Shown here one piece after another: positions 1 to 62,505 of a DNA stretch of 64,000 bases (position 1 is its first letter; every line of letters begins with the position of its first letter). The translations under genes were made by a program, and so were the position numbers. Source of the stretch: Eledone cirrhosa (Eukaryota); assembly GCA_964016885.1 (NCBI GenBank), contig OZ024740.1, forward strand, positions 8,990,001 through 9,054,000, in the 5' to 3' direction. The notes beneath the pieces were generated by a model. It made no database searches. It was not told where the DNA came from and was given only the letters and a program-made list of their open reading frames with translations.

Positions 1-120
1 TATGTCAGTCTCTATTGGTATATCAGTTTCGATTGGTATGTCAATTTCGCTTGGTATGTCAGTTTCTATTGGTATGTCAGTTTAGATTAGTATATCAGTT
101 TCTATTGGTATGTCAGTCTC

Positions 121-15416: not shown

Positions 15417-15434
15417 CAGACCGGGTGATGTGTT

Positions 15435-32200: not shown

Positions 32201-35200
32201 ATTGGTATGTCAGTTTCGATTGGTATGTCAGTTTCGATTGTTATGTCAGTGTCTATTGGTATATCAGTTTCTATTGGTATGTCAGTTTCTATTGGTATAT
32301 CAGTTTCGATTGGAATATCAGTTTCGATTGGTATGTCAGTTTCTATTGGTATGTCAGTTTCGATTGGTATATCAGTTTCTATTGGTATATCAGTTTCGAT
32401 TGCTATGTCAGTTTCGATTGCTATGTCAGTCTCTATTGGTTTATCAGTTTCGATTAGTATATCAGTTTCTATTGGTATGTTAGTTTCTATTGGTATGTCA
32501 GTTTCGATTAGTATATCGGTTTCTATTGGTATATCAGTTTCGATTGGTATATCAGTTTCGATTGGTATATCAGTTTCAATTGGTATATCAGTTTCGATTG
32601 GTATATCAGTTTCAATTGGTATGTCATTTTTTATCGGTATATCAGTTTCTATTGGTATATCAGTTTCGATTGGTATGTCAATTTCGATTGGTATGTCAGT
32701 TTCTATTGGTATATCAGTTTTGATTGGCATATCAGTTTCGATTAGTATGTCAGTTTCGATTGGTATGTCAGTTTTCGATTCGTATATCAGTTTCGATTTG
32801 TATATCAGTTTCGATTGCTATATCAGTTTTTATTGCTATATCAATTCCTATAGGTATGTCAGTTTCTATTGGTATATCAGTTTCGATTGGTATGTCAGTT
32901 TATATTGGTATATCAGTTTCGATTGGCATATCAGTTTCAATTAGTATGTCAGTTTCGATTGGTATATCAGTTTCGAATGGTATTTCAATCTCGATTGGTA
33001 TGTCAGTTTCGATTAGTATATCAGTTACAATTGGTATATCAGTTTCAATTGGTATGTTAGTTTCTATTGGTATGTCAGTTTCTATTAGTATATCAGCTTC
33101 TATTGGTATGTCAGTTTCGATTGTTATGTTAGTCCTCGATTTGTATGTCACTTTCTATTGGTATATCAGTTTCGATTGGTATGTCAGTTTCAATTAGTAT
33201 ATCAGTTTCTATTGGTATGTCAGTTTCTATTGGTATATCAGTTTCGATTGGAATATCAGTTTCGATTGGTAAGTCAGTTTCTATTGGTATGTCAGTTTCG
33301 ATTGGTATATCAGTTTCGATTGGTATATCAGTTTCTATTGCTATATCAGTTTCTATTGTTATATCAGTTTCGATTTGTATGTCAGTTTCTATTGGTATAT
33401 CAGTTGCGATTGGTATGTCAGTTTCTATTGGTATGTGAGTTTCGATTATTATATCAGTTACTATTGGTATGTCAGTGTCTATTGGTATATCAGTTTCGTT
33501 TGGTATGTCAGTTTCGATTAGTATATCAGTTTCTATTGGTATGTCAATTTCGATTGGTATGTCAGTTTCGATTGGTATATCAGTTTCGAATGGTATTTCA
33601 ATCTCGATTGGTATGTCAGTTTCGATTGGTATATCAGTTTCGATTAGTATGTCAGTTTCTATTGGTATATCAGTTTCGATTGGAATATCAGTTTCGATTG
33701 GTATGTCAGTTTCTATTGGTATGTCAGTTTCGATTGGTATATCAGTTTCGATTGGTATATCAGTTTCTATTGCTATATCAGTTTCTATTAGTATATCAGT
33801 TTCGATTGGTATGTCAGTTTCTATTTGTATATCAGTTGCGATTGGTATGTCACTTTCGATTGGTATGTCAGTATCAATTGTTATGTCAGTGTCTATTGGT
33901 ATATCAGTTTCGATTGGTATGTCAGTTTCTATTGGTATTTCAGTTTCGTTTGGTATGTCAGTTTCGATTAGTATATCAGTTTCTATTGTTAATTCAGTTT
34001 CTATTGGTATATCAGTTTCGATTGGTATATAAGTTTCTATTGGTATGTCAATTTCGATTGGTATGTCTGTTTCGATTGATATATCAGATTCGACTGGTAT
34101 ATCACTTTCTATTGCTATATCAGTTTCTATTGGTATTTCAGTTTCTATTGGTATATCAGTTTTGATTGGTATGTCAGTTTCTATTGCTATGTCAGTTTCC
34201 ATTATTATATCAGTTACTATTGGTATGTCAGTTTCGATTGGTATGTCAGTTTCGATTGTTATGTCAGTGTCTATTGGTATATCAGTTTCTATTGGTATGT
34301 CAGTTTCTATTGGTATATCAGTTTCGATTGGAATATCAGTTTCGATTGGTATGTCAGTTTCTATTGGTATGTCAGTTTCGATTGGTATATCAGTTTCTAT
34401 TGGTATATCAGTTTCGATTGCTATGTCAGTTTCGATTGCTATGTCAGTCTCTATTGGTTTATCAGTTTCGATTGGTATATCAGTTTCTATTGGTATGTTA
34501 GTTTCTATTGGTATGTCAGTTTCGATTCGTATATCAGTTTCAATTGGTATGTCATTTTTTATCGGTATATCAGTTTCTATTGGTATATCCGTTTCGATTG
34601 GTATGTCAATTTCGATTGGTATGTCAGTTTCAATTAGTATATCAGTTTCTATTGGTATGTCAGTTTATATTGGTATATCAGTTGCGATTGGCATATCAGT
34701 TTCAATTAGTATGTCAGTTTCGATTGGTATATCAGTTTCGAATGGTATTTCAATCTCGATTGGTATGTCAGTTTCGATTAGTATATCAGTTGCGATTGGA
34801 ATATCAGTTTCGATTGGTAAGTCAGTTTCTATTGGTATGTCAGTTTCGATTGGTATATCAGTTTCGATTGGTATATCAGTTTCTATTGCTATATCAGTTT
34901 CTATTGGTATATCAGTTTCGATTGTTATGTCAGTTTCTATTGGTATATCAGTTGCGATTGGTATGTCAGTTTCTATTGGTATGTGAGTTTCGATTATTAT
35001 ATCAGTTACTATTGGTATGTCAGTGTCTATTGGTATATCAGTTTCGATTGGTATGTCAGTTTCTATTAGGATATAAGTTTCGTTTGGTATGTCAGTTTCG
35101 ATTAGTATATCAGTTTCTATTGGTATGTCAATTTCGATTGGTATGTCAGTATCAATTGTTATGTCAGTGTCTATTGGTATATCAGTTTCGATTGGTATGT

Positions 35201-38200
35201 CAGTTTCTATTGGTATTTCAGTTTCGTTTGGTATGTCAGTTTTGATTAGTATATCAGTTTCTATTGTTAAGTCAGTTTCTATTGGTATATCAGTTTCGAT
35301 TGGTATATCAGTTTCTATTGGTATGTCAATTTCGATTGGTATGTCAGTTTCGATTGGTATATCAGGTTCGATTAGTATGTCAGTTTCTATTGGTCTATCA
35401 GTTACGATTGGTATGTCAGTTTCTATTGGTATATCAGTTTCGATTGGTATATAAGTTTCTATTGGTATGTCAATTTCGATTGGTATGTCTGTTTTGATTG
35501 GTATATCAGATTCGACTGGTATATCACTTTCTATTGCTATATCAGTTTCTATTGGTATGTCAGTTTCAATTGGTATGTCAGTTTCTATTGGTATATCAGT
35601 TTTGATTGGTATGTCAGTTTCTATTGCTATGTGAGTTTCCATTATTATATCAGTTACTATTGGTATGTCAGTTTCGATTGGTATGTCAGTTTCGATTGTT
35701 ATGTCAGTGTCTATTGGTATATCAGTTTCTATTGGTATGTCAGTTTCTATTGGTATATCAGTTTCGATTGGAATATCAGTTTCGATTGGTATGTCAGTTT
35801 CTATTGGTATGTCAGTTTCGATTGGTATATCAGTTTCTATTGGTATATCAGTTTCGATTGCTATGTCAGTTTCGATTGCTATGTCAGTCTCTATTGGTTT
35901 ATCAGTTTCGATTGGTATATCAGTTTCTATTGGTATGTTAGTTTCTATTGGTATGTCAGTTTCGATTATATATCAGTTTCTATTGGTATATCAGTTTCGA
36001 TTGGTATGTCAGTTTCGATTAGTATATCAGTCACTATTTGTATGTCAGTTTCTATTGGTATATCAGTTTCGATTGGTATATCAGTTTCGATTGGTATATC
36101 AGTTTCAATTGGTATGTCATTTTTGATTGGTATATCAGTTTCTATTGGTATATCAGTTTCGATTGGGATGTCAATTTCGATTGGTATGTCAGTTTCTATT
36201 GGTATATCAGTTTTGATTGGCATATCAGTTTCGATTAGTATGTCAGTTTTCGATTCGTATATCAGCTTCGATTTGTATATCAGTTTCGATTGGTATATCA
36301 GTTTTTATTGCTATATCAATTCCTATAGGTATGTCAGTTTCTATTGGTATATCAGTTACGATTGGTATATCAGTTTCAATTGGTATGTTAGTTTCTATTG
36401 GTATGTCAGTTTCTATTAGTATATCAGCTTCTATTGGTATGTCAGTTTCGATTGGTATGTTAGTCCTCGATTTGTATGTCACTATCTATTGGTATATCAG
36501 TTTTGATTGGTATGTCAGTTTCAATTAGTATATCAGTTTCTATTGGTATGTCAGTTTCTATTGGTATATCAGTTTCGATTGGAATATCAGTTTCGATTGG
36601 TAAGTCAGTTTCTATTGGTATGTCAGTTTCGATTGGTATATCAGTTTCGATTGGTATATCAGTTTCTATTGCTATATCAGTTTCTATTGGTATATCAGTT
36701 TCGATTGGTATGTCAGTTTCTATTGGTATATCAGTTGCGATTGGTATGTCAGTTTCTATTGGTATGTGAGTTTCGATTATTATATCAGTTACTATTGGTA
36801 TGTCAGTGTCTATTGGTATATCAGTTTCGATTGGTATGTCAGTTTCTATTAGAATATTAATTTCGATTGGTATGTCAGTTTCGATTGGTATATCAGTTTC
36901 GAATGGTATTTCAATCTCGATTGGTATGTCAGTTTCGATTGGTATATCAGTTTCGATTAGTATGTCAGTTTCTATTGGTATATCAGTTTCGATTGGAATA
37001 TCAGATTCGATTGGTATGTCAGTTTCTATTGGTATGTCATTTTCGATTGGTATATCAGTTTCGATTAGTATATCAGTTTCTATTGCTATATCAGTTTCTA
37101 TTAGTATATCAGTTTCGATTGGTATGTCACTTTCGATTGGTATGTCAGTATCAATTGTTATGTCAGTGTCTATTGGTATATCAGTTTCGATTGGTATGTC
37201 AGTTTCTATTGGAATTTCAGTTTCGTTTGGTATGTCAGTTTTGATTAGTATATCAGTTTCTATTGTTAAGTCAGTTTCTATTGGTATATCAGTTTCTATT
37301 GGTATATCAGTTTCTATTGGTATGTCAATTTCGATTGGTATGTCAGTTTCGATTGGTATATCAGGTTCGATTAGTATGTCAGTTTCTATTGGTCTATCAG
37401 TTACGATTGGTATGTCAGTTTCTATTGGTATATCAGTTTCGATTGGTATTTCAATCTCGATTGGTATGTCAGTTTCGATTGGTATATCAGTTTCGATTAG
37501 TATGTCAGTTTCTATTGGTATATCAGTTTCGATTGGAATATCAGATTCGATTGGTATGTCAGTTTCTATTGGTATGTCATTTTCGATTGGTATATCAGTT
37601 TCGATTAGTATATCAGTTTCTATTGCTATATCAGTTTCTATTAGTATATCAGTTTCGATTGGTATGTCAGTTTCTATTGGTATATCAGTTGCGATTGGTA
37701 TGTCACTTTCGATTGGTATGTCAGTATCAATTGTTATGTCAGTGTCTATTGGTATATCAGTTTCGATTGGTATGTCAGTTTCTATTGGTATTTCAGTTTC
37801 GTTTGGTATGTGAGTTTCGATTAGTATATCAGTTTCTATTGTTAAGTCAGTTTCTATTGGTATATCAGTTTCGATTGGTATATCAGTTTCTATTGGTATG
37901 TCAATTTCGATTGGTATGTCAGTTTCGATTGGTATGTTCATCCTCGAGTTGTATGTCAGTTTCTATTGGTATATCAGTTTCGATTGCTATGTCAGTTTCG
38001 ATTGCTATGTCAGTCTCTATTGGTTTATCAGTTTCGATTGGTATATCAGTTTCTATTGGTATGTTAGTTTGTATTGGTATGTCAGTTTCGATTAGTATAT
38101 CAGTTTCTATTGGTATATCAGTTTCGATTGGTCTGTCAGTTTCGATTAGTATATCAGTTCCTATTTGTATGTGAGTTTCTAGTGGTATATCAGTTTCGAT

Positions 38201-39500
38201 TGGTATATCAGTTTCAATTGGTATGTCATTTTTGATTGGTATATCAGTTTCTATTGGTATATCAGTTTCGATTGGTATGTCTATTTCGATTGGTATGTCA
38301 GTTACTATTGGTATGTCAGTTTCGATTAGTATATCAGTTTCTATTGGTAAGTCAGTTTCGATTGCTATGTCAGTTTTGATTGCTATGTCAGTTTCGATTG
38401 GTATGTTAGTTTCTATTGGTATGTCAGTTTCTATTAGTATATCAGCTTCTATTGGTATGTCAGTTTCGATTGGTATGTTAGTCCTCGATTTGTATATCAC
38501 TTTCTATTTGTATATCAGTTTCGATTGGTATGTCAGTTTCAATTAGTATATCAGTTTCTATTGGTATGTCAGTTTCTATTGGTATATCAGTTTTGATTGG
38601 AATATCAGTTTCGATTGGTATGTCAGTTTCTATTGGTATGTCAGTTTCGATTGGTATATCAGTTTCGATTGGTATATCAGTTTCTATTGCTATATCAGTT
38701 TCTATTGGTATATCAGTTTCGATTGGTATGTCAGTTTCTATTGGTATATCAGTTGCGATTGGTATGTCAGTTTCGATTGTTATGTCAGTGTATATTGGTA
38801 TATCAGTTTTGATTGGTATGTCAGTTTCTATTGGTATATCAGTTTCGTTTCGTATGTCAGTTTCGATTAGTATATCAGTTTCTATTGGTATGTCAATTTC
38901 GATTGGTATGTCAGTTTCGATTGGTATATCAGTTTCAAATGGTATTTCAATCTCGATTGGTATATCAGTTTCGATTGGTATATCAGTTTCGATTAGTATA
39001 TCAGTTTCTATTGGTATATCAGTTTCGTTTGGTATATCAGTTTGTATTGGTATGTCATTGGTATATCAGTTTCGATTGGTCTGTCAGTTTCTATTGGTAT
39101 ATCAGTTTCGTTCGGTATGTCAGTTTCGATTAGTATATCAGTTTCTATTGTTAAGTCAGTTTCTATTGGTATATCAGTTTCGATTGGTATATCAGTTTCT
39201 ATTGGTATGTCAATTTCGATTGGTATGTCAGTTTCGATTGGTATATCAAGTTCGATTAGTATGTCAGTTTCTATTGGTCTATCAGTTACGATTGGTATGT
39301 CAGTTTCTATTGGTATATCAGTTTCGATTGGTATATAAGTTTCTATTGGTATGTCAATTTCGATTGGTATATCAGATTCTACTGGTATATCACTTTCTAT
39401 TGGTATGTCAGTTTCAATTGGTATGTCAGTTTCTATTGGTATATCAGTTTTGATTGGAATGTCAGTTTCTATTGCTATGTCAGTTTCCATTATTATATCA
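17300..39500. repeat. Higher-order repeat domain, ~2.1-2.5 kb unit (roughly 120 monomers) with length variants
   Basis: Ordered markers (GGTAAGTC, TTGTTAAGTC, TCAGGTTCG, GGTCTATCAGTTACG, TTTTTATCGG, ATTCCTATAGG) recur. GGTCTATC lies near 18299, 20515, 22839, 25056, 26532, 29990, 31935, 35393, 37392 and 39277. Confidence 0.8.
25963..36760. repeat. 5,403-bp tandem duplication (~25963-31365 and ~31366-36760)
   Basis: Identical ORF pairs offset by exactly 5403 (26606/32009, 27726/33129, 29262/34665, 30840/36243). One substitution seen (C30096 vs T35499). A 5-monomer (90-bp) length difference lies near the junction. Confidence 0.92.
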
Positions 39501-42500
39501 GTTACTATTGGTATGTCAGTTTCGATTGGTATGTCAGTTTCGATTGTTATGTCAGTGTCTATTGGTATATCAGTTTCTAATGGTATGTCAGTTTCTATTG
39601 GTATATCAGTTTCGATTGGAATATCAGTTTCGATTGGTATGTCAGTTTCTATTGGTATGTCAGTTTCGATTGGTATATCAGTTTCGATTGGTATATCAGT
39701 TTCTATTGCTATATCAGTTTCTATTGGTATATCAGTTGCGATTGGTATGTCAGTTTCTATTGGTATATCAGTTGCGATTGGTATGTCAGTTTCTATTGGT
39801 ATGTGAGTTTCGATTATTATATCAGTTACTATTGGTATGTCAGTTTCGATTGGTATGTCAGTTTCGATTGTTATGTCAGTGTCTATTGGTATATCACTTT
39901 CGATTGGTATGTCAGTTTCTCTTGGTATATCAGTTTCTATTGGTATGTGAGTTTCGATTATTATATCAGTTGCGATTGGTATGTCAGTTTCGATTGGTAT
40001 GTCAGTTTCTATTGGTATGTCAGTGTCTATTGGTATATCAGTTTTGATTGGTATGTCAGTTTCTCTTGGTATATCAGTTTCTATTGGTATGTCAATTTCG
40101 ATTGGTATGTCAGTTTCGATTGGTATATCAGTTTCGAATGGTCTTTCAATCTCGATTGGTATATCAGTTTCTATTGGTATGTGAGTTTCGATTATTATAT
40201 CAGTTTCGATTAGTATGTCAGTTTCTATTGGTATATCAGTTTCGTTTGGTATATCAGTTTCTATTGGTATGTCATTGGTATATCAGTTTCGATTGGTATG
40301 TCAGTTTCTATTGGTATATCAGCTTCGATTGGTATGTCAGTTTCGATTGGTATATCAGTTACGATTGGAATATCAGTTTCGATTGGTATGTAAGTTTCTA
40401 GTGGTATGTCAGTTTCGATTGGTATATCAGTTTCGATTGGTATATAAGTTTCTATTGCTATATCAGTTTCTATTAGTATATCAGTTTCGATTGGTATGTC
40501 AGTTTCTATTGGTATATCAGTTGCGCTTGTTATGTCAATTTATATTGGTATGTGCGTTTCGATTATTATATCAGTTACTATTAGTATGTCACTTTCGATT
40601 GGTATGTTAGTTTCTATTGGTATGTCAGTTTCTATTAGTATATCAGCTTCTATTTGTATGTCAGTTTCCATTGGTATGTTAGTCCTCGATTTGTATGTCA
40701 CTTTCTATTGGTATATCAGTTTCGATTGGTATGTCAGTTTCAATTAGTATATCAGTTTCTATTGGTATGTCAGTTTCTATTGGTATATCAGTTTCGATTG
40801 GAATATCAGTTTCGATTGCTATGTCAGTTTCTATTGGTATGTCAGTTTCGATTGGTATATCAGTTTCGATTGGTATATCAGTTTCTATTGCTATATCAGT
40901 TTCAAATGGTCTTTCAATCTCGATTGGTATGTCAGTTTCGATTGGTATATCAGTTTCGATTAGTATGTCAGTTTCTATTGGTATATCAGTTTCGTTTGGT
41001 ATATCAGTTTCTATTGGTATGTCATTGGTATATCAGTTTCGATTGGTATGTCAGTTTCTATTGGTATATCAGCTTCGATTGGTATGTCAGTTTCGATTGG
41101 TATATCAGTTTCGATTGGAATATCAGTTTCGATTGGTATGTAAGTTTCTATTTGTATGTCAGTTTCGATTGGTATATCAGTTTCGATTGGTATATCAGTT
41201 TCTATTGCTATATCAGTTTCTATTAGTATATCAGTTTCGATTGGTATGTCAGTTTCTATTGGTATATCAGTTGCGCTTGGTATGTCAATTTCTATTGGTA
41301 TGTGCGTTTCGATTATTATATCAGTTACTATTAGTATGTCACTTTCGATTGGTATGTTAGTTTCTATTGGTATGTCAGTTTCTATTAGTATATCAGCTTC
41401 TATTTGTATGTCAGTTTCCATTGGTATGTTAGTCCTCGATTTGTATGTCACTTTCTATTGGTATATCAGTTTCGATTGGTATGTCAGTTTCAATTAGTAT
41501 ATCAGTTTCTATTGGTATGTCAGTTTCTATTGGTATATCAGTTTCGATTGGAATATCACTTTCGATTGGTATGTCAGTTTCTATTGGTATGTCAGTTTCG
41601 ATTGGTATATCAGTTTCGATTGGTATATCAGTTTTATTGCTATATCAGTTTCTATTGGTATATCAGTTTCGATTGGTATGTCAGTTTCTATTGGTATATC
41701 AGTTGCGATTGGTATGTCAGTTTCTATTGGTATGTGAGTTTCGATTATTATATCAGTTACTATTGGTATGTCAGTTTTGATTGGTATGTCAGTTTCGATT
41801 GTTATGTCAGTGTCTATTGGTATATCAGTTTTGATTGGTATGTCAGTTTCTATTGGTATATCAGTTTCGTTTGGTATGTCAGTTTCGATTAGTATATCAG
41901 TTTCTATTGGTATGTCAATTTCGATTGGTATCTCAGTTTCGATTGGTATATCAGTTTCGAATGGTATTTCAATCTCGATTGGTATGTCAGTTTCGATTGG
42001 TATATCAGTTTCGATTAGTATGTCAGTTTCTATTGGTATATCAGTTTCGATTGGTATATCAGTTTCTATTGGTATGTCATTGGTATATCAGTTTTGATTG
42101 GTATGTCAGTTTCTATTGGTATATCAGTTTAGATTGGTATATCAGTTTCGATTGGTATGTCAGTTTCTATTGGTATATCAGTTTCTATTTGTATGTCCGT
42201 TTCGATTGGTATGTCAGTTACTATAGGTATATCAGTTTCGATTGGTATGTTAGGTTCTATTGGTATGTCAGTTTCGATTAGTATATCAGTATCTATTGGT
42301 ATGTCAGTTTTGATTGGTATGTTCGTCCTCGAGTTGTATGTCAGTTTCTATTGGTATATCAGTTTCGATTGCTACGTCAGTTTCGATTGCTATGTCAGTC
42401 ACTATTGGTTTATCAGTTTCGATTGGTATATCAGTTTCGATTGGTATATCAGTTTCAATTGGTATGTCATTTTTGATTGGTATATCAGTTTCTATTGGTA

Positions 42501-43694
42501 TATCAGATTCGATTGGTATGTCTATATCTATTGGTATGTCAGTTTCGAGGAGTATATCAGTTTCTATTGGTATGTCAGTCTCTATTGGTATGTCATTTTC
42601 GATTGGTATATCAGTTTCGATTAGTATGTCAGTTTCTATTGGTATATCAGTTTCGTTTGGTATATCAGTTTCTATTGGTATGTCATTGGTATATCAGTTT
42701 CGATTGGTATATCAGTTTCGATTGGTATATCAGTTTCTATTGCTATATCAGTTTCTATTAGTATATCAGTTTCGATTGGTATGTCAGTTTCGATTAGTAT
42801 ATCATTTTCGAATGGTCTTTCAATCTCGATTGGTATATCAGTTTCGATTGGTATATCAGTTTCGATTGGTATGTCAGTTTCTATTGGTATGTCAGTTTCG
42901 ATTGGTATATCAGTTTCGATTGGTATATCAGTTTCTATTGCTATATCAGTTTCGAATGGTCTTTCAATCTCAATTGGTATGTCAGTTTCGATTGGTATAT
43001 CAGTTTCGATTAGTATGTCAGTTTCTATTGGTATATCAGTTTCGTTTGGTATATCAGTTTCTATTGGTATGTCATTGGTATATCAGTTTCGATTGGTATG
43101 TCAGTTTCTATTGGTATATCAGCTTCGATTGGTATGTCAGTTTCGATTGGTATATCAGTTTCGATTGGAATATCAGTTTCGATTGGTATGTAAGTTTCTA
43201 TTGGTATGTCAGTTTCGATTGGTATATCAGTTTCGATTGGTATATCAGTTTCGATTGGTATATCAGTTTCTATTGCTATATCAGTTTCTATTAGTATATC
43301 AGTTTCGATTGGTATGTCAGTTTCTATTGGTATATCAGTTGCGCTTCGTATGTCAATTTCTATTGGTATGTGCGTTTCGATTATTATATCAGTTACTATT
43401 AATATGTCACTTTCGATTGGTATGTTAGTTTCTATTGGTATGTCAGTTTCTATTAGTATATCAGCTTCTATTTGTATGTCAGTTTACATTGGTATGTTAG
43501 TCCTCGATTTGTATGTCACTTTCTATTGGTATATCAGTTTCGATTGGTATGTCAGTTTCAATTAGTATATCAGTTTCTATTGGTATGTCAGTTTCTATTG
43601 GTATATCAGTTTCGATTGGTATATCAGTTTCGATTGGTATGTCAGTTTCTATTGGTATGTCAGTTTCGATTGGTATATCAGTTTCGATTGGTAT

Positions 43695-44801
43695 CATCAT
43701 CATCATCATCATCACCGTTTTACGTCCGTTCTTCCACGCTAGCATGGGTTAGACGGGTTGTCCTGTTGTGGGCAGTGTCTGGTCGGCTGACCATGCCTTG
43801 CTCATACAGGAACTGATCTGGCTTGATTTCTACAGCTGGATGCCCTTCCTAACACCAACCTCATTTACAGTGAGTGCTGGGTGCTTTTTCGTGGCGCCTA
43901 CACGTCCACTTTACAGTGTGGGCTGGGTGCTTTTTTGCCGTGGCACCTCCACGACCACCTTGCGGTGGGGGGGGGGCATATTGTTTATATGCTTCAGCAT
44001 GTACCCATGGGAGGTCGGGTACCCTGTATTACTGCGTGACGCCAGAAGTCACGGTCGTGTGTCATTGACTTTGAGAGGTGTAGTTGGGTAAGGTCGGCTT
44101 TTATCACCTCATCCCAAGTCATCTTGGGTCTCCCCACTCCGCGGTTTCCATCAACTTCTAGTGCTCTGCACCTTTTTATGCAGCTGTCATCCTTCATACG
44201 CATCACATGTCCATACCAGCGTAACCGCCTCTCCTGCACGCAGCATTTGATTCCTCTTATGCTCAGTCTCTCTCTCAATTCATTTATGCTTTGTCGTTCA
44301 CGTATATTACTGTTACACATCCATCGGAGCATGCAGGCTTCGTTTCTCTCTAATCTACGTAAGTCTTCCACCTTCAGCGCCCAGGTCTCACTACCATGCA
44401 ACATCGCTGTTCGGATACACGCATCATACAGTCTGCCTTTCATTCTGAGGGAGAAGCCTTTTGCAGCTAGCACTGGTAGTAGTTCCCTAAACTTCTTCCA
44501 TCCCGTTCTTACCCTAGTTATTGTACTTTCTGAGCACCCACCTCCGTTGCTAATTCGGTCACCTAGGTAGCAGAAGCTGTCTACTGTTTCTACAGGGCCC
44601 TCCCAGAGATTGGTGGTACTTGTTTCCTGTGGCTGTTTGCTTGTTGTTTCAGCACAGCTGCTGCATGTGTATCCTACATTCTTAATTAAGCTTCCTGAGA
44701 TCCCACTACATCTCTTGTGTACCCATTGTTTGCATTTGGGGCAAAGAATGGAGTTCCTACCTACACCTTTCCTACATACTGAGCAAGGCCATTTCCCTGA
44801 G
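43695..44801 (-). mobile_element. 5'-truncated RTE-clade LINE (1,107 bp): end of the RT ORF, 3' UTR and (ATG)n tail
   Basis: Tail reads (CAT)n on + at 43695-43712. TSD GGTAT at 43690-43694 and 44802-44806, with an empty paralogous site near 42921. The protein has RTE-type motifs FCYLG, HGSETW, RRLRWYGHVMRM and GRPKMTW. Confidence 0.95.
43994..44800 (-). pseudogene. Uninterrupted 268-aa C-terminal fragment of the RTE LINE RT polyprotein: PHD finger, RT YLG motif and thumb/C-terminal region (no start codon, 5'-truncated)
   Basis: Manual translation upstream of the listed 159-aa ORF has no stop: SGKWPCSVCRKGVGRNSILCPKCKQWVHKRCSGISGSLIKNVGYTCSSCAETTSKQPQETSTTNLWEGPVETVDSFCYLGDRISNGGGCSESTITRVRTGWKKFRELLPVLAAKG... 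The stop TGA is at 43994-43996. Confidence 0.9.
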
Positions 44802-47016
44802 GGTATATCAGTTTCTATTGCTATATCAGTTTCGAATGGTCTTTCAATCTCAATTGGTATGTCAGTTTCGATTGGTATATCAGTTTCGATTAGTATGTCA
44901 GTTTCTATTGGTATATCAGTTTCGTTTGGTATATCAGTTTCTATTGGTATGTCATTGGTATATTAGTTTCGATTGGTATGTCAGTTTCTATTGGTATATC
45001 AGCTTCGATTGGTATGTCAGTTTCGATTGGTATATCAGTTTCGATTGGAATATCAGTTTCGATTGGTATGTAAGTTTCTATTTGTATGTCAGTTTCGATT
45101 GGTATATCAGTTTCGATTGGTATATCAGTTTCTATTGCTATATCAGTTTCTATTGGTATATCAGTTTTGATTGGTATATCAGTTTCTATTGGTATATCAG
45201 TTGCGATTGGTATGTCAGTTTCGATTGTTATGTCAGTGTATATTGGTATATCAGTTTTGATTGGTATGTCAGTTTCTATTGGTATATCACTTTCGTTTGG
45301 TATGTCAGTTTCGATTAGTATATCAGTTTCTATTGGTATGTCAATTTCGATTGGTATGTCAGTTTCGATTGGTATATCAGTTTCGAATGGTATTTCAATC
45401 TCGATTGGTATGTCAGTTTCGATTGGTATATCAGTTTCGATTAGTATGTCAGTTTCTATTGGTATATCAGTTTCGTTTGGTATATCAGTTTGTATTGGTA
45501 TGTCATTGGTATATCAGTTTCGATTGGTATGTCAGTTTCTATTGGTATATCAGCTTCGATTGCTATGTCAGTTTCTATTGGTATATCAGTTGCGATTGGT
45601 ATGTGAGTTTCGATTATTATATCAGTTACTATTGGTATGTGAGTTTTGATTGGTATGTCAGTTTCGATTGTTATGTCAGTGTCTATTGGTATATCAGTTT
45701 CGATTGGTATGTCAGTTTCGATAGTATATCAGTTTCTATTGGTATGTCAGTTTCGATTGGTATATCAGTTTCGATTTGTATGTCAGTTTCTATTCGTATA
45801 TCAGTTTCGATTGGTATATCAGTTTCGATTGGTATGTCATTGGTATATCAGTTTCGATTGGTATGTCAGTTTCTATTGGTATATCAGTTTCTATTTGTAT
45901 GTCCGTTTCGATTGGTATGTCAGTTACTATAGGTATATCAGTTTCGATTGGTATGTCAGTTTCTATTGGTATATCAGTTTCAATTGGTATATCAGTTTCT
46001 ATTGTTATATCAGTTTCTATTAGTATATCAGTTTCTATTGATATGTCAGTCTCTATTGGTATATCAGTTTCGATTGGTATGTCAGTTTCGATTGGTACGT
46101 CAGTTTCGATTGGTATATCAGTTTCTATTGGTATATCAGTTTCGATTGCTATGTCAGTTTCGATTGCTATGTCAGTCTCTATTGGTTTATCAGTTTCGAT
46201 TGGTATATCAGTTTCTATTGGTATGTTAGTTTCTATTGGTATGTCAGTTTCGATTAGTATATCAGTTTCTATTGGTATATCAGTTTCGATTGGTATGTCA
46301 GTTTCGATTAGTATATCAGTTACTATTTGTATGTCAGTTTCGATTGGTATATCAGTTTCAATTGGTATGTCATTTTTGATTGGTATATCAGTTTCTATTG
46401 GTATATCAGTTTCGATTGGTATGTCAATTTCGATTGGTATGTCAGTTTCTATTGGTATGTCAGTTTCGATTGGTATGTCAGTTTCTATTGGTATATCAGT
46501 TTCTATTGGTATGTCAGTTGCTATTGTTATATCAGTTTCGATTGGTATATCAGTTTCGATTGTTATGTCAATTTCGATTGTTATGTCAGTTTCGATTGGT
46601 ATATCAGATTCGACTGATATATCACTTTCTATTGATATATCAGTTTCTATTGGTATGTCAGTTTCAATTGGTATGTCAGTTTCGATTGGTATATCAGTTT
46701 AGAGTGGTATTTCAATCTCGATTGGTATGTCAGTTTCGATTGGTATATCAGTTACAATTGGTATAACAGTTTCAATTGGTATGTCAGTTTCTATTGGTAT
46801 GTCAGTTTCGATTGGTATGTCAATTTCGATTGGTATATCAGTTTCTATTGCTATATCAGTTTCTATGGTATATCAGTTTCGATTGGTATGTCAGTTTCTA
46901 TTGTTATGTGAGTTTCGATTATTATATCAGTTACTATTGGTATGTCAGTTTCGATTGGTATGTCAGTCTCGATTGTTATGTCAGTGTCTATTGGTATATA
47001 AGTTTCGTTTGGTATG

Positions 47017-47404
47017 CCTCTCAAAGTCAATGACACACGACCGTGACTTCTGGCGTCACGCAGTAATACAGGGTACCCGACCTCCCATGGGTACATGCTG
47101 AAGCATATAAACAATATGCCCCCACTCCCCCCACCGCAAGGTGGTCGTGGAGGTGACACAGCAAAAAAGCACCCAGCCCACACTGTAAACAGGACGTGTA
47201 GGCGCCACGAGAAAGCACCCAGCACACACTGTAAATGAGGTTGGTGTTAGGAAGGGTATCCAGCTGTAGAAATCAAGCCAGATCAGTTCCTGTATGAGCA
47301 AGGCATGGCCAGCCGACCAGACACTGCCCACAACAGGACAACCCGTCTAACCCATGCTAGCGTGGAAGAACGGACGTAAAACAGTGATGATGGTGATGAT
47401 GATG
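47017..47404 (+). mobile_element. Short 5'-truncated copy of the same RTE LINE family (last 27 codons, 3' UTR and tail); independent insertion
   Basis: Reverse-complement match to 43695-44078 with about ten differences. Encodes LSKSMTHDRDFWRHAVIQGTRPPMGTC*. Flanked by ATG (47014-47016 and 47405-47407), which is either a 3-bp TSD or tail microhomology. Confidence 0.93.
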
Positions 47405-50400
47405 ATGTCAGTTTCGATTAGTATATCAGTTTCTATTGGTATGTCAATTTCGATTGGTATGTCAGTTTCGATTGGTATATCAGTTTCGAATGGTATTTCA
47501 ATCTCGATTGGTATGTCAGTTTCGATTGGTATATCAGTTTCGATTAGTATGTCAGTTTCTATTGGTATATCAGTTTCGTGTGGTATATCAGTTTCTATTG
47601 GTATTTCTTTGGTATATCAGTTTCGATTGGTATGTCATTTTCTATTGGTATATCAGCTTCGATTGGTATATCAGTTTCAATTGGAATATCAGTTTCGATT
47701 GGTATGTCACTTTCTATTGGTATGTCAGTTTCGATTGGTATATCAGTTTCGATTGGTATATCAGTTTCTATTGCTATGTCAGTTTCTATTAGTATATCAG
47801 TTTCGGTTGGTATATCAGTTTTGATTGGCATATCAGTTTCGATTAGTATGTCAGTTTCGATTGGTATGTCAGTTTTCGATTCGTATATCAGTTTCGATTT
47901 GTATATCAGTTTCGATTGCTATATCAGTTTTTATTGCTATATCAATTCCTATAGGTATGTCAGTTTCTATTGGTATATCAGTTTCGATTGGTATGTCAGT
48001 TTATATTGGTATATCAGTTTCGATTGGCATATCAGTTTCAATTAGTATGTCAGTTTCGATTGGTATATCAGTTTCGAATGGTATTTCAATCTCGATTGGT
48101 ATGTCAGTTTCGATTAGTATATCAGTTACAATTGGTATATCAGTTTCAATTGGTATGTTAGTTTCTATTGGTATGTCAGTTTCTATTAGTATATCAGCTT
48201 CTATTGGTATGTCAGTTTCGATTGTTATGTTAGTCCTCGATTTGTATGTCACTTTCTATTGGTATATCAGTTTCGATTGGTATGTCAGTTTCAATTAGTA
48301 TATCAGTTTCTATTGGTATGTCAGTTTCTATTGGTATATCAGTTTCGATTGGAATATCAGTTTCGATTGGTAAGTCAGTTTCTATTGGTATGTCAGTTTC
48401 GATTGGTATATCAGTTTCGATTGGTATATCAGTTTCTATTGCTATATCAGTTTCTATTGTTATATCAGTTTCGATTTGTATGTCAGTTTCTATTGGTATA
48501 TCAGTTGCGATTGGTATGTCAGTTTCTATTGGTATGTGAGTTTCGATTATTATATCAGTTACTATTGGTATGTCAGTGTCTATTGGTATATCAGTTTCGT
48601 TTGGTATGTCAGTTTCGATTAGTATATCAGTTTCTATTGGTATGTCAATTTCGATTGGTATGTCAGTTTCGATTGGTATATCAGTTTCGAATGGTATTTC
48701 AATCTCGATTGGTATGTCAGTTTCGATTGGTATATCAGTTTCGATTAGTATGTCAGTTTCTATTGGTATATCAGTTTCGATTGGAATATCAGTTTCGATT
48801 GGTATGTCAGTTTCTATTGGTATGTCAGTTTCGATTGGTATATCAGTTTCGATTGGTATATCAGTTTCTATTGCTATATCAGTTTCTATTAGTATATCAG
48901 TTTCGATTGGTATGTCAGTTTCTATTTGTATATCAGTTGCGATTGGTATGTCACTTTCGATTGGTATGTCAGTATCAATTGTTATGTCAGTGTCTATTGG
49001 TATATCAGTTTCGATTGGTATGTCAGTTTCTATTGGTATTTCAGTTTCGTTTGGTATGTCAGTTTCGATTAGTATATCAGTTTCTATTGTTAATTCAGTT
49101 TCTATTGGTATATCAGTTTCGATTGGTATATAAGTTTCTATTGGTATGTCAATTTCGATTGGTATGTCTGTTTCGATTGATATATCAGATTCGACTGGTA
49201 TATCACTTTCTATTGCTATATCAGTTTCTATTGGTATTTCAGTTTCTATTGGTATATCAGTTTTGATTGGTATGTCAGTTTCTATTGCTATGTCAGTTTC
49301 CATTATTATATCAGTTACTATTGGTATGTCAGTTTCGATTGGTATGTCAGTTTCGATTGTTATGTCAGTGTCTATTGGTATATCAGTTTCTATTGGTATG
49401 TCAGTTTCTATTGGTATATCAGTTTCGATTGGAATATCAGTTTCGATTGGTATGTCAGTTTCTATTGGTATGTCAGTTTCGATTGGTATATCAGTTTCTA
49501 TTGGTATATCAGTTTCGATTGCTATGTCAGTTTCGATTGCTATGTCAGTCTCTATTGGTTTATCAGTTTCGATTGGTATATCAGTTTCTATTGGTATGTT
49601 AGTTTCTATTGGTATGTCAGTTTCGATTCGTATATCAGTTTCAATTGGTATGTCATTTTTTATCGGTATATCAGTTTCTATTGGTATATCCGTTTCGATT
49701 GGTATGTCAATTTCGATTGGTATGTCAGTTTCAATTAGTATATCAGTTTCTATTGGTATGTCAGTTTATATTGGTATATCAGTTGCGATTGGCATATCAG
49801 TTTCAATTAGTATGTCAGTTTCGATTGGTATATCAGTTTCGAATGGTATTTCAATCTCGATTGGTATGTCAGTTTCGATTAGTATATCAGTTGCGATTGG
49901 AATATCAGTTTCGATTGGTAAGTCAGTTTCTATTGGTATGTCAGTTTCGATTGGTATATCAGTTTCGATTGGTATATCAGTTTCTATTGCTATATCAGTT
50001 TCTATTGGTATATCAGTTTCGATTGTTATGTCAGTTTCTATTGGTATATCAGTTGCGATTGGTATGTCAGTTTCTATTGGTATGTGAGTTTCGATTATTA
50101 TATCAGTTACTATTGGTATGTCAGTGTCTATTGGTATATCAGTTTCGATTGGTATGTCAGTTTCTATTAGGATATAAGTTTCGTTTGGTATGTCAGTTTC
50201 GATTAGTATATCAGTTTCTATTGGTATGTCAATTTCGATTGGTATGTCAGTATCAATTGTTATGTCAGTGTCTATTGGTATATCAGTTTCGATTGGTATG
50301 TCAGTTTCTATTGGTATTTCAGTTTCGTTTGGTATGTCAGTTTTGATTAGTATATCAGTTTCTATTGTTAAGTCAGTTTCTATTGGTATATCAGTTTCGA

Positions 50401-53400
50401 TTGGTATATCAGTTTCTATTGGTATGTCAATTTCGATTGGTATGTCAGTTTCGATTGGTATATCAGGTTCGATTAGTATGTCAGTTTCTATTGGTCTATC
50501 AGTTACGATTGGTATGTCAGTTTCTATTGGTATATCAGTTTCGATTGGTATATAAGTTTCTATTGGTATGTCAATTTCGATTGGTATGTCTGTTTTGATT
50601 GGTATATCAGATTCGACTGGTATATCACTTTCTATTGCTATATCAGTTTCTATTGGTATGTCAGTTTCAATTGGTATGTCAGTTTCTATTGGTATATCAG
50701 TTTTGATTGGTATGTCAGTTTCTATTGCTATGTGAGTTTCCATTATTATATCAGTTACTATTGGTATGTCAGTTTCGATTGGTATGTCAGTTTCGATTGT
50801 TATGTCAGTGTCTATTGGTATATCAGTTTCTATTGGTATGTCAGTTTCTATTGGTATATCAGTTTCGATTGGAATATCAGTTTCGATTGGTATGTCAGTT
50901 TCTATTGGTATGTCAGTTTCGATTGGTATATCAGTTTCTATTGGTATATCAGTTTCGATTGCTATGTCAGTTTCGATTGCTATGTCAGTCTCTATTGGTT
51001 TATCAGTTTCGATTGGTATATCAGTTTCTATTGGTATGTTAGTTTCTATTGGTATGTCAGTTTCGATTATATATCAGTTTCTATTGGTATATCAGTTTCG
51101 ATTGGTATGTCAGTTTCGATTAGTATATCAGTCACTATTTGTATGTCAGTTTCTATTGGTATATCAGTTTCGATTGGTATATCAGTTTCGATTGGTATAT
51201 CAGTTTCAATTGGTATGTCATTTTTGATTGGTATATCAGTTTCTATTGGTATATCAGTTTCGATTGGGATGTCAATTTCGATTGGTATGTCAGTTTCTAT
51301 TGGTATATCAGTTTTGATTGGCATATCAGTTTCGATTAGTATGTCAGTTTTCGATTCGTATATCAGCTTCGATTTGTATATCAGTTTCGATTGGTATATC
51401 AGTTTTTATTGCTATATCAATTCCTATAGGTATGTCAGTTTCTATTGGTATATCAGTTACGATTGGTATATCAGTTTCAATTGGTATGTTAGTTTCTATT
51501 GGTATGTCAGTTTCTATTAGTATATCAGCTTCTATTGGTATGTCAGTTTCGATTGGTATGTTAGTCCTCGATTTGTATGTCACTATCTATTGGTATATCA
51601 GTTTTGATTGGTATGTCAGTTTCAATTAGTATATCAGTTTCTATTGGTATGTCAGTTTCTATTGGTATATCAGTTTCGATTGGAATATCAGTTTCGATTG
51701 GTAAGTCAGTTTCTATTGGTATGTCAGTTTCGATTGGTATATCAGTTTCGATTGGTATATCAGTTTCTATTGCTATATCAGTTTCTATTGGTATATCAGT
51801 TTCGATTGGTATGTCAGTTTCTATTGGTATATCAGTTGCGATTGGTATGTCAGTTTCTATTGGTATGTGAGTTTCGATTATTATATCAGTTACTATTGGT
51901 ATGTCAGTGTCTATTGGTATATCAGTTTCGATTGGTATGTCAGTTTCTATTAGAATATTAATTTCGATTGGTATGTCAGTTTCGATTGGTATATCAGTTT
52001 CGAATGGTATTTCAATCTCGATTGGTATGTCAGTTTCGATTGGTATATCAGTTTCGATTAGTATGTCAGTTTCTATTGGTATATCAGTTTCGATTGGAAT
52101 ATCAGATTCGATTGGTATGTCAGTTTCTATTGGTATGTCATTTTCGATTGGTATATCAGTTTCGATTAGTATATCAGTTTCTATTGCTATATCAGTTTCT
52201 ATTAGTATATCAGTTTCGATTGGTATGTCACTTTCGATTGGTATGTCAGTATCAATTGTTATGTCAGTGTCTATTGGTATATCAGTTTCGATTGGTATGT
52301 CAGTTTCTATTGGAATTTCAGTTTCGTTTGGTATGTCAGTTTTGATTAGTATATCAGTTTCTATTGTTAAGTCAGTTTCTATTGGTATATCAGTTTCTAT
52401 TGGTATATCAGTTTCTATTGGTATGTCAATTTCGATTGGTATGTCAGTTTCGATTGGTATATCAGGTTCGATTAGTATGTCAGTTTCTATTGGTCTATCA
52501 GTTACGATTGGTATGTCAGTTTCTATTGGTATATCAGTTTCGATTGGTATTTCAATCTCGATTGGTATGTCAGTTTCGATTGGTATATCAGTTTCGATTA
52601 GTATGTCAGTTTCTATTGGTATATCAGTTTCGATTGGAATATCAGATTCGATTGGTATGTCAGTTTCTATTGGTATGTCATTTTCGATTGGTATATCAGT
52701 TTCGATTAGTATATCAGTTTCTATTGCTATATCAGTTTCTATTAGTATATCAGTTTCGATTGGTATGTCAGTTTCTATTGGTATATCAGTTGCGATTGGT
52801 ATGTCACTTTCGATTGGTATGTCAGTATCAATTGTTATGTCAGTGTCTATTGGTATATCAGTTTCGATTGGTATGTCAGTTTCTATTGGTATTTCAGTTT
52901 CGTTTGGTATGTGAGTTTCGATTAGTATATCAGTTTCTATTGTTAAGTCAGTTTCTATTGGTATATCAGTTTCGATTGGTATATCAGTTTCTATTGGTAT
53001 GTCAATTTCGATTGGTATGTCAGTTTCGATTGGTATGTTCATCCTCGAGTTGTATGTCAGTTTCTATTGGTATATCAGTTTCGATTGCTATGTCAGTTTC
53101 GATTGCTATGTCAGTCTCTATTGGTTTATCAGTTTCGATTGGTATATCAGTTTCTATTGGTATGTTAGTTTGTATTGGTATGTCAGTTTCGATTAGTATA
53201 TCAGTTTCTATTGGTATATCAGTTTCGATTGGTCTGTCAGTTTCGATTAGTATATCAGTTCCTATTTGTATGTGAGTTTCTAGTGGTATATCAGTTTCGA
53301 TTGGTATATCAGTTTCAATTGGTATGTCATTTTTGATTGGTATATCAGTTTCTATTGGTATATCAGTTTCGATTGGTATGTCTATTTCGATTGGTATGTC

Positions 53401-56400
53401 AGTTACTATTGGTATGTCAGTTTCGATTAGTATATCAGTTTCTATTGGTAAGTCAGTTTCGATTGCTATGTCAGTTTTGATTGCTATGTCAGTTTCGATT
53501 GGTATGTTAGTTTCTATTGGTATGTCAGTTTCTATTAGTATATCAGCTTCTATTGGTATGTCAGTTTCGATTGGTATGTTAGTCCTCGATTTGTATATCA
53601 CTTTCTATTTGTATATCAGTTTCGATTGGTATGTCAGTTTCAATTAGTATATCAGTTTCTATTGGTATGTCAGTTTCTATTGGTATATCAGTTTTGATTG
53701 GAATATCAGTTTCGATTGGTATGTCAGTTTCTATTGGTATGTCAGTTTCGATTGGTATATCAGTTTCGATTGGTATATCAGTTTCTATTGCTATATCAGT
53801 TTCTATTGGTATATCAGTTTCGATTGGTATGTCAGTTTCTATTGGTATATCAGTTGCGATTGGTATGTCAGTTTCGATTGTTATGTCAGTGTATATTGGT
53901 ATATCAGTTTTGATTGGTATGTCAGTTTCTATTGGTATATCAGTTTCGTTTCGTATGTCAGTTTCGATTAGTATATCAGTTTCTATTGGTATGTCAATTT
54001 CGATTGGTATGTCAGTTTCGATTGGTATATCAGTTTCAAATGGTATTTCAATCTCGATTGGTATGTCAGTTTCGATTGGTATATCAGTTTCGATTAGTAT
54101 ATCAGTTTCTATTGGTATATCAGTTTCGTTTGGTATATCAGTTTGTATTGGTATGTCATTGGTATATCAGTTTCGATTGGTCTGTCAGTTTCTATTGGTA
54201 TATCAGTTTCGTTCGGTATGTCAGTTTCGATTAGTATATCAGTTTCTATTGTTAAGTCAGTTTCTATTGGTATATCAGTTTCGATTGGTATATCAGTTTC
54301 TATTGGTATGTCAATTTCGATTGGTATGTCAGTTTCGATTGGTATATCAAGTTCGATTAGTATGTCAGTTTCTATTGGTCTATCAGTTACGATTGGTATG
54401 TCAGTTTCTATTGGTATATCAGTTTCGATTGGTATATAAGTTTCTATTGGTATGTCAATTTCGATTGGTATATCAGATTCTACTGGTATATCACTTTCTA
54501 TTGGTATGTCAGTTTCAATTGGTATGTCAGTTTCTATTGGTATATCAGTTTTGATTGGAATGTCAGTTTCTATTGCTATGTCAGTTTCCATTATTATATC
54601 AGTTACTATTGGTATGTCAGTTTCGATTGGTATGTCAGTTTCGATTGTTATGTCAGTGTCTATTGGTATATCAGTTTCTAATGGTATGTCAGTTTCTATT
54701 GGTATATCAGTTTCGATTGGAATATCAGTTTCGATTGGTATGTCAGTTTCTATTGGTATGTCAGTTTCGATTGGTATATCAGTTTCGATTGGTATATCAG
54801 TTTCTATTGCTATATCAGTTTCTATTGGTATATCAGTTGCGATTGGTATGTCAGTTTCTATTGGTATATCAGTTGCGATTGGTATGTCAGTTTCTATTGG
54901 TATGTGAGTTTCGATTATTATATCAGTTACTATTGGTATGTCAGTTTCGATTGGTATGTCAGTTTCGATTGTTATGTCAGTGTCTATTGGTATATCACTT
55001 TCGATTGGTATGTCAGTTTCTCTTGGTATATCAGTTTCTATTGGTATGTGAGTTTCGATTATTATATCAGTTGCGATTGGTATGTCAGTTTCGATTGGTA
55101 TGTCAGTTTCTATTGGTATGTCAGTGTCTATTGGTATATCAGTTTTGATTGGTATGTCAGTTTCTCTTGGTATATCAGTTTCTATTGGTATGTCAATTTC
55201 GATTGGTATGTCAGTTTCGATTGGTATATCAGTTTCGAATGGTCTTTCAATCTCGATTGGTATATCAGTTTCTATTGGTATGTGAGTTTCGATTATTATA
55301 TCAGTTTCGATTAGTATGTCAGTTTCTATTGGTATATCAGTTTCGTTTGGTATATCAGTTTCTATTGGTATGTCATTGGTATATCAGTTTCGATTGGTAT
55401 GTCAGTTTCTATTGGTATATCAGCTTCGATTGGTATGTCAGTTTCGATTGGTATATCAGTTACGATTGGAATATCAGTTTCGATTGGTATGTAAGTTTCT
55501 AGTGGTATGTCAGTTTCGATTGGTATATCAGTTTCGATTGGTATATAAGTTTCTATTGCTATATCAGTTTCTATTAGTATATCAGTTTCGATTGGTATGT
55601 CAGTTTCTATTGGTATATCAGTTGCGCTTGTTATGTCAATTTATATTGGTATGTGCGTTTCGATTATTATATCAGTTACTATTAGTATGTCACTTTCGAT
55701 TGGTATGTTAGTTTCTATTGGTATGTCAGTTTCTATTAGTATATCAGCTTCTATTTGTATGTCAGTTTCCATTGGTATGTTAGTCCTCGATTTGTATGTC
55801 ACTTTCTATTGGTATATCAGTTTCGATTGGTATGTCAGTTTCAATTAGTATATCAGTTTCTATTGGTATGTCAGTTTCTATTGGTATATCAGTTTCGATT
55901 GGAATATCAGTTTCGATTGCTATGTCAGTTTCTATTGGTATGTCAGTTTCGATTGGTATATCAGTTTCGATTGGTATATCAGTTTCTATTGCTATATCAG
56001 TTTCAAATGGTCTTTCAATCTCGATTGGTATGTCAGTTTCGATTGGTATATCAGTTTCGATTAGTATGTCAGTTTCTATTGGTATATCAGTTTCGTTTGG
56101 TATATCAGTTTCTATTGGTATGTCATTGGTATATCAGTTTCGATTGGTATGTCAGTTTCTATTGGTATATCAGCTTCGATTGGTATGTCAGTTTCGATTG
56201 GTATATCAGTTTCGATTGGAATATCAGTTTCGATTGGTATGTAAGTTTCTATTTGTATGTCAGTTTCGATTGGTATATCAGTTTCGATTGGTATATCAGT
56301 TTCTATTGCTATATCAGTTTCTATTAGTATATCAGTTTCGATTGGTATGTCAGTTTCTATTGGTATATCAGTTGCGCTTGGTATGTCAATTTCTATTGGT

Positions 56401-58795: not shown

Positions 58796-59902
58796 CATCA
58801 TCATCATCATCATCACCGTTTTACGTCCGTTCTTCCACGCTAGCATGGGTTAGACGGGTTGTCCTGTTGTGGGCAGTGTCTGGTCGGCTGACCATGCCTT
58901 GCTCATACAGGAACTGATCTGGCTTGATTTCTACAGCTGGATGCCCTTCCTAACACCAACCTCATTTACAGTGAGTGCTGGGTGCTTTTTCGTGGCGCCT
59001 ACACGTCCACTTTACAGTGTGGGCTGGGTGCTTTTTTGCCGTGGCACCTCCACGACCACCTTGCGGTGGGGGGGGGGCATATTGTTTATATGCTTCAGCA
59101 TGTACCCATGGGAGGTCGGGTACCCTGTATTACTGCGTGACGCCAGAAGTCACGGTCGTGTGTCATTGACTTTGAGAGGTGTAGTTGGGTAAGGTCGGCT
59201 TTTATCACCTCATCCCAAGTCATCTTGGGTCTCCCCACTCCGCGGTTTCCATCAACTTCTAGTGCTCTGCACCTTTTTATGCAGCTGTCATCCTTCATAC
59301 GCATCACATGTCCATACCAGCGTAACCGCCTCTCCTGCACGCAGCATTTGATTCCTCTTATGCTCAGTCTCTCTCTCAATTCATTTATGCTTTGTCGTTC
59401 ACGTATATTACTGTTACACATCCATCGGAGCATGCAGGCTTCGTTTCTCTCTAATCTACGTAAGTCTTCCACCTTCAGCGCCCAGGTCTCACAACCATGC
59501 AACATCGCTGTTCGGATACACGCATCATACAGTCTGCCTTTCATTCTGAGGGAGAAGCCTTTTGCAGCTAGCACTGGTAGTAGTTCCCTAAACTTCTTCC
59601 ATCCCGTTCTTACCCTAGTTATTGTACTTTCTGAGCACCCACCTCCGTTGCTAATTCGGTCACCTAGGTAGCAGAAGCTGTCTACTGTTTCTACAGGGCC
59701 CTCCCAGAGATTGGTGGTACTTGTTTCCTGTGGCTGTTTGCTTGTTGTTTCAGCACAGCTGCTGCATGTGTATCCTACATTCTTAATTAAGCTTCCTGAG
59801 ATCCCACTACATCTCTTGTGTACCCATTGTTTGCATTTGGGGCAAAGAATGGAGTTCCTACCTACACCTTTCCTACATACTGAGCAAGGCCATTTCCCTG
59901 AG
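58796..59902 (-). mobile_element. Duplicate of the 43695-44801 RTE LINE, produced by the 15.1-kb duplication
   Basis: Same truncation point, tail length, TSD (GGTAT) and flanks, at offset 15101. Confidence 0.95.
59095..59901 (-). pseudogene. Second copy of the 268-aa PHD-RT C-terminal fragment (HGCETW instead of HGSETW)
   Basis: Matches 43994-44800 apart from T>A at 59493 (S>C), the only difference noticed. Confidence 0.9.
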
Positions 59903-62117: not shown

Positions 62118-62505
62118 CCTCTCAAAGTCAATGACACACGACCGTGACTTCTGGCGTCACGCAGTAATACAGGGTACCCGACCTCCCATGGGTACATGCT
62201 GAAGCATATAAACAATATGCCCCCACTCCCCCCACCGCAAGGTGGTCGTGGAGGTGACACAGCAAAAAAGCACCCAGCCCACACTGTAAACAGGACGTGT
62301 AGGCGCCACGAGAAAGCACCCAGCACACACTGTAAATGAGGTTGGTGTTAGGAAGGGTATCCAGCTGTAGAAATCAAGCCAGATCAGTTCCTGTATGAGC
62401 AAGGCATGGCCAGCCGACCAGACACTGCCCACAACAGGACAACCCGTCTAACCCATGCTAGCGTGGAAGAACGGACGTAAAACAGTGATGATGGTGATGA
62501 TGATG
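62118..62505 (+). mobile_element. Duplicate of the 47017-47404 LINE 3' fragment
   Basis: Same sequence, including the ATGGTGATG tail variant, and same flanks at offset 15101. Confidence 0.94.

Follow-up and report, generated by a model that had tools for sequence, protein, structure and literature searches.

Here, a PHD finger is identified inside the reverse transcriptase (RT) of a young RTE-type LINE, where it is an insertion within the RT palm, between motifs 6 and 7 (a motif numbering that we take to hold for this element). The architecture is real and conserved and is apparently undescribed. It places an independently folding, conserved module of 50 residues in the polymerase palm of young, intact, high-copy elements. 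The architecture of LINE ORF2 is regarded as tightly constrained, and how LINEs that are not site-specific engage chromatin is an open question. The finger lies in a window of 64,000 nt (the whole stretch of DNA that was analysed), 94% of which is an 18-bp satellite interrupted by six inserts. The features of the window are:

1..64000, + strand: 18-bp satellite, belonging to a single array of ~2 Mb
32691..62914, no strand: 15.1-kb tandem duplication of satellite and inserts (~32.7-47.8 kb repeated at 47.8-62.9 kb)
43693..44806, - strand: young RTE-type LINE copy, 5'-truncated, within the 18-bp satellite (~1.1 kb of a ~4.7-kb element)
44654..44785, - strand: PHD finger (C4HC3), residues 778-821 of the full-length protein
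44558..44593, - strand: VETVDSFCYLGD, the RT motif 7 region, where the RT resumes past the PHD finger (from the ORF translation and the model)
43994..44557, - strand: helical thumb and C-terminal part of the ORF, ending at the stop codon (from the translation and the model)
43693..43993, - strand: 3' UTR of ~300 bases with a (GAT)n end, also present in the window's SINE-like and short copies
58794..59907, - strand: duplicate of the PHD-bearing insertion (PHD finger at 59755-59886), one mismatch in 1,098 bases
47020..47401, + strand: separate 3' fragment of the same LINE family, 382 bases, duplicated at 62121-62502

The finger and its place in the polymerase

An earlier note on this DNA had described a complete C4HC3 PHD finger, and it was recovered at exactly 44654..44785. 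The minus frame from 44800 reads SGKWPCSVC...CPKC..W.H..C...CSSC, with C1 starting at 44785 and C8 ending at 44654, and the Pfam model PF00628 scores 33.9 bits on the isolated 57 aa and 28.8 bits on the 268-residue fragment that the window copy encodes from SGKWPC onwards, against a cut-off of 24 bits. Structure prediction also returned a PHD fold (pLDDT 72.6). Nearly all of the matches listed in two fold searches were PHD fingers, the best Foldseek E value being 0.009 for this small domain, and the nearest solved domains by sequence and by fold were Pygopus, then BPTF and TAF3 (TM-score 0.57-0.63 and probability 1.0 against Pygo in Foldseek; Z 6.0-6.4 in the second search).

The window copy is truncated at ~44806, right before the finger, and the window alone therefore cannot place the finger within the protein; YADD is missing from this copy and the open frame beyond the truncation is translated satellite. 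In a full-length neighbour just outside the window (L021), a single frame of 1040 aa encodes an APE endonuclease at 33-267 (Exo_endo_phos 33-173) and RVT_1 at 558-762, with YADD at 721, followed by GLKVN..KTK (motif 6), the PHD finger at 778-821, an 11-residue linker, a hairpin, FCYLGD at 848-853 and a helical C-terminus. The order endonuclease, RT (YADD), PHD, YLG anticipated in the earlier note is found in this protein, and its claim that the finger belongs to the RT polypeptide holds in full-length copies, where RVT_1, PHD and FCYLGD share one frame. The T/S/Q/E-rich linker that it described also exists, but consists of only ~11 variable residues before a predicted beta-hairpin of the RT.

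An assembly artefact was ruled out as the source of this domain order: YADD lies in frame just upstream in 35 of 38 copies, and RT, PHD and thumb are also contiguous, with 5 differences over 2,576 bases, in an independently assembled contig from another run. When the same genome was searched at the protein level, there were 79,377 first-look candidates, and the 150 that were scored are 98-100% identical, many of them in 1040-codon frames. The window copy shares 98.1-99.6% identity with 38 other genomic loci (L003-L040), and all eight zinc ligands are present in 38/38 own-genome copies, these being the top-scoring matches. An AlphaFold model of the LINE protein (pLDDT 88.4) finds its best match in human L1 ORF2p (Z 24-27); the fold match reaches L1 residue ~1065, and a profile alignment to L1 stops where the PHD finger starts.

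By its features the element would be classed as an RTE-type LINE, a placing accompanied by a tree without named RTE references. The RTE traits present are a single long ORF with APE endonuclease and RT, an absent or rudimentary ORF1, and a short 3' UTR (~300 bases) that ends in tandem repeats, here (GAT)n. The 5' region of one full-length copy is made up of ~1.3 kb of 98-base repeats and holds no long ORF1, the longest sense ORF being 88 aa; in RTE clade LINEs, ORF1 is rudimentary or absent (PMC3905857, in part). Members such as RTE-1, Bov-B, Expander/Rex3, SR3 and RTE-2_OV resemble this LINE in having one long APE and RT ORF, no long ORF1, a short 3' UTR with a microsatellite tail and, probably, a preference for T|A sites, but differ in that a 60-residue PHD insert stands here between RT motifs 6 and 7. 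About ten of the 98-base monomers, which recall the monomeric promoters of mouse L1, are seen in the 5' region (L021:5313-6335), and their number seems to vary among copies.

Two minor observations concern individual copies and other runs. One locus (L040, contig 1, 105260500-105270000) has a 2,129-codon open frame, ~2x the normal length, that ends in the LINE ORF; this copy may have arisen by head-to-tail joining or by an internal duplication. The element (L021:1600-5011) is also present in three runs that are labelled as three other organisms, at >99% identity and very low depth, which is read as contamination, diet or close relatives rather than as evidence of transfer.

Relatives and known systems

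The PHD-in-RT architecture is, judged from sequence comparison, old and widespread, and it can be read from the Pfam labels automatically assigned to public proteins. Residues 715-900, used as a query, retrieved 324 proteins, 120 of them listed, at 47-59% identity, and among 50%-identity representatives an exhaustive search found 91 at E <=1e-30. The eight zinc ligands, P777 and the flanking RT motifs are invariant in 121/121 aligned relatives, as are F, Y, L, G and D of the motif 7 region; the invariant ligands bear out the Cys/His conservation expected of a genuine finger in the earlier note. Mean column conservation is 0.73 for the first half of the PHD finger, 0.71 for the RT core and 0.63 for the endonuclease, and a complete finger is found in 88 of 150 representatives at 50% identity, both protein sets having been collected with a PHD-containing query that inflates PHD conservation. 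The two linkers that flank the finger are variable, with column conservation of 0.31 and 0.27 and pLDDT of ~62-75.

Because a query that contains the PHD finger inflates its apparent conservation, the search was repeated with the C-terminal region only. Two of the 41 matches were dropped for want of YADD. Among the 39 kept, a complete PHD finger stands in the same place in 33 and a decayed one in a single protein; the other five, all distant (30-36% identity), have a short loop instead. The distance from motif 6 to YLG is ~90 residues with the finger vs ~29 in a relative that has none. In a quick RT tree built with the PHD excluded (51 rows: 44 with PHD, 6 with none and 1 CR1-type), all rows with a PHD group on one branch together with the decayed one (SH-aLRT 95). 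The non-PHD relatives in it are unnamed, the outgroup sampling is thin, and this grouping does not imply a single origin. Octopus bimaculoides and the catfish Neoarius graeffei are the only named PHD-bearing hosts among the matches listed, and one ESM Atlas cluster, auto-named PHD/RT, has Mollusca as its commonest taxon (3 records).

PHD domains of CR1/L2 LINEs were reportedly described by Kapitonov and Jurka in 2003. In these elements the PHD lies in ORF1 or N-terminal to the endonuclease, the structure of ORF2 is called highly constrained, the best PDB matches are likewise Pygopus (2vpb, 3zpv), and a general targeting role has been proposed (Metcalfe and Casane, PMC4120745, in part). The present finger is similar in being a Pygopus-like PHD in a non-LTR element, whereas it interrupts the RT palm instead of standing in ORF1 or at the N-terminus; since no long ORF1 lies upstream, the PHD of CR1/L2 ORF1 sits here on the polymerase itself. 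The octopus element RTE-2_OV encodes 1109 aa with endonuclease, RT and a C2H2 finger (PMC9115989, in part), and is set apart by that description, its finger being given as C2H2 and not as PHD. Reader domains are also known on the enzymes of LTR elements, where chromovirus chromodomains and CopiaMBD have been proposed or shown to guide integration (PMC6673714, in part); there the reader is near the integrase, whereas here the element is non-LTR and the PHD is inside the RT. No literature description of a PHD inside an RT was found, and Repbase, Dfam, subscription papers and supplements, which lay outside the scope of the search, may well carry a note of one; the portions available of PMC9115989, PMC7846101, PMC3849965, PMC3905857, PMC1291365 and PMC3391268 contain none.

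Pocket, charge and candidate roles

In Pygo1 the K4me2 cavity is formed by W366, Y341, D352, V350 and A356, with I357 in the T3 pocket (PMC2726290, in part). When positions are counted from the zinc ligands, Y341 corresponds to an aromatic residue at 776 (115/121, followed by proline 777 in 121/121), V350 to V785 (114/121), A356 to S/A789 (121/121), I357 to I790 (84%) and W366 to W798 (119/121). Among the 88 complete fingers of the 150 representatives, the W is retained in 86, the V in 85 and the aromatic in 81. The cage of an H3K4me reader, made of the invariant Trp and an aromatic before C1, is present, but its acid-lined pocket (E360 and D352 in Pygo) is missing: the D352 equivalent is D/E in 2/121 and the E360 equivalent in 10/121. 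Mutation of E360 in Pygo1 abolishes H3K4me3 binding and leaves only background (PMC2726290, in part), and RAG2 binds H3K4me3 with no acid in its Arg2 pocket (PMC3241642, in part). Readers of unmodified H3, of the BHC80/AIRE type, need an acidic cluster before C1 (PMC3241642, in part), and the combination of such a cluster with no cage is not found in this finger. The putative methyl-lysine pocket is thus conserved about as strongly as the RT core, and the acids that would hold the histone tail are gone.

The domain is also net basic. Residues 774-792 contain zero acids in 103/121 relatives and residues 793-803 in 105/121, and the net charge of the finger is +3 to +11 in 119/119 and +1 to +12 in 88/88. 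K783, K801 and K/R802 are conserved, the small residues G784, G786 and N788 are invariant, and a Gly-rich GVGxNS loop replaces the EVND loop of Pygo. Compared with Pygopus-type PHDs (Pygo1/2; also BPTF and TAF3), the finger shares the fold and the pocket residues Y-P, V, A/S, I and W, but lacks the EVND loop, D352 and E360, has shorter loops, and is net basic where the Pygopus pocket is lined with acids.

The reading preferred here, tentatively, is that the PHD finger serves as a built-in target-docking module in the RT palm of an old, single-ORF, RTE-type lineage; we infer both the binding and the ligand. Its basic surface would grip DNA, probably nucleosomal, and a methylated lysine, with H3K4me as the most plausible one, would fit into the Pygopus-like pocket that the finger retains. 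The finger might in this way keep the enzyme on chromatin during target-primed reverse transcription, and the endonuclease, rather than the PHD, would likely determine the exact cut site (T|A within AT-alternating DNA). The loss of acidic residues and the basic charge make histone binding doubtful: repulsion is to be expected between a net basic domain and the H3 tail, which is itself basic, and the near absence of D352/E360 equivalents is a further point against it, E360 being required for H3K4me3 binding in Pygo1.

The same charge is what would be expected if the finger were no longer a histone reader at all and instead bound nucleic acid: lying next to motif 7 and the thumb, it would clamp the target DNA, the template RNA or the hybrid of RNA and cDNA, and W798 would stack on a base. 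Every relative is net basic with nearly acid-free first two thirds, the conserved lysines and the Gly-rich loop in the place of the EVND loop would suit such contacts, and the finger is located inside a polymerase. A plain basic surface would, however, have no need of the full methyl-lysine pocket, which is kept at 92-100%, and pure nucleic-acid binding, although somewhat unlikely, ranks close behind the docking module. The invariant G784, G786 and N788 could alternatively be a packing surface, in which case the finger would be a structural or protein-interaction insert, either packed against the RT or bound to a host factor or some other methylated protein, and would neither select nor hold targets. 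PHD fingers do also bind non-histone partners (PMC3241642, in part) and the non-PHD relatives work with a short loop at the insertion site, but the two variable linkers suit a mobile reader better than a packed subdomain, and this explanation is considered improbable.

If the docking reading is right in its strongest form, which is possible but doubtful, the elements would represent a widespread, ancient and apparently undescribed LINE lineage with a working H3K4-methyl or nucleosome reader in the RT palm. Recognition of chromatin would then be linked directly to the priming of reverse transcription, by a reader that for the first time is located inside an RT and that takes the place of the PHD which other LINEs bear in ORF1. 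A single tryptophan, or the removal of the domain, offers a handle on whether a LINE reads a histone mark or nucleic acid, and the tolerance of the motif 6-7 loop for a whole domain could be useful for engineering targeting modules into RTs.

The satellite array and its insertions

The satellite is essentially one forward-oriented array that starts at 7.23 Mb of contig 1 and totals ~2 Mb; two probes place its far end at 9.45-9.6 Mb, and two probes inside it are non-satellite. Almost every copy of the repeat in the genome falls in the stretch of ~7.23-9.5 Mb (exact 30-mers: 4,104 forward and 41 reverse), one strand reads long open (IETDIP)n frames, and the array is a candidate for a centromeric or other single-locus array. 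In the window, the 15.1-kb tandem duplication has an identity of 0.999-1.0 per 1-kb bin over 33,001-47,000 at an offset of 15,101, with just two mismatches observed, and is either a very recent array expansion or an assembly duplicate. The second copy at 59755-59886 pointed out in the earlier note does carry the PHD finger, but an independent second landing there is ruled out by this duplication. The 382-base fragments at 47020 and 62121 are, for the same reason, one insertion seen twice.

Two further inserts are related to the LINE by their 3' ends. At 15354-15688 (+) lies a SINE-like insert with a tRNA-like head (by eye), a middle part, a 3' part and a GAT-repeat end; the 3' part is 88-96% like the LINE 3' UTR, ARAGORN reported no tRNA in the insert, and the PHD-bearing LINE likely mobilised it. 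At 6805-7174 (+) lies a 3' fragment of an older or sister subfamily, with ~78% identity to the LINE 3' UTR, a (GAT)n end and the same satellite phase.

The earlier note had proposed that the PHD finger could direct integration of the LINE and its SINE towards a chromatin state such as that of this satellite. Some enrichment is indeed seen. Counted by an exact 30-base 3'-end motif, which occurs 11,714 times in 2,996 Mb, 36 copies fall in the array interval of 7.23-9.39 Mb, vs 8.4 expected in 2.16 Mb, a density of 16.7 copies/Mb or 4.3x the genome mean that is inflated by array duplications. A second young LINE family, which is CR1-like (L117-L146; 945-codon frame, (ATT)n tail, 2,692 exact 3' ends, RT without PHD), has only 1/2,692 copies in the interval (Fisher p = 0.009), and the enrichment is therefore family-specific, with the qualification that this control family is of a different age, has a different tail and could have a PHD in its ORF1. 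The density of short AT-alternating motifs was tried as an explanation for the ~4-fold enrichment and is insufficient (ratio 0.74-1.32 vs a 200 kb background).

Against this, the interval holds only ~0.3% of the family and 99.7% of copies are elsewhere, so that most copies do not lie in one target repeat as they would for a target-specific LINE. On the same chromosome, the preceding 7.2 Mb are exceeded 1.9x in density by the array, but the first 2.2 Mb have the same density as the array. The pocket is, moreover, of the H3K4me type, a mark that is usually poor in satellite heterochromatin. Junctions point the same way: 22/25 in the array are locked to one 18-mer phase and the copies have an orientation bias of 27:9, a sequence read-out that a chromatin mark would not yield and that indicates a preference of the endonuclease. 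The steering proposal is not upheld; chromatin-driven homing to the satellite is poorly supported and we regard it as very unlikely. The simplest account of the satellite copies is endonuclease preference, together with retention and duplication in a neutral array, although chromatin might also contribute; the satellite may be a target because every 18-mer offers a T|A site.

Forward insertions join at TAT|RTC in 17/19 cases and reverse insertions at AT|AC in 5/6, and CGAT|TGG, the best match to the GAT tail, accounts for about one insertion. Upstream of T|A, at a distance of 9-11 bases, the preferred forward site carries TTT; this fits the Tn-TA signature published for Bov-B and for plant RTEs (PMC13295347, in part) and again argues for sequence rather than chromatin. 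Outside the satellite, in a sample that is all or nearly all from contig 1, 46/120 junctions fall within (TA)n-like tracts, which account for 7.4% of positions in the background, and 74/120 elsewhere. In unique DNA, target-site duplications are rare, with 7 doubtful candidates among 74, and 46 flanks showed no peak of T; inside the array, matches resembling duplications were left uncounted, as they are expected from its periodicity. Across loci L167-L226, clear target-site duplications are rare and many 5' junctions adjoin short (TA)n runs. At one further locus in the satellite (L035, contig 1, 8882000-8889000), two copies stand head to tail, the tail of one abutting the 5' region of the next.
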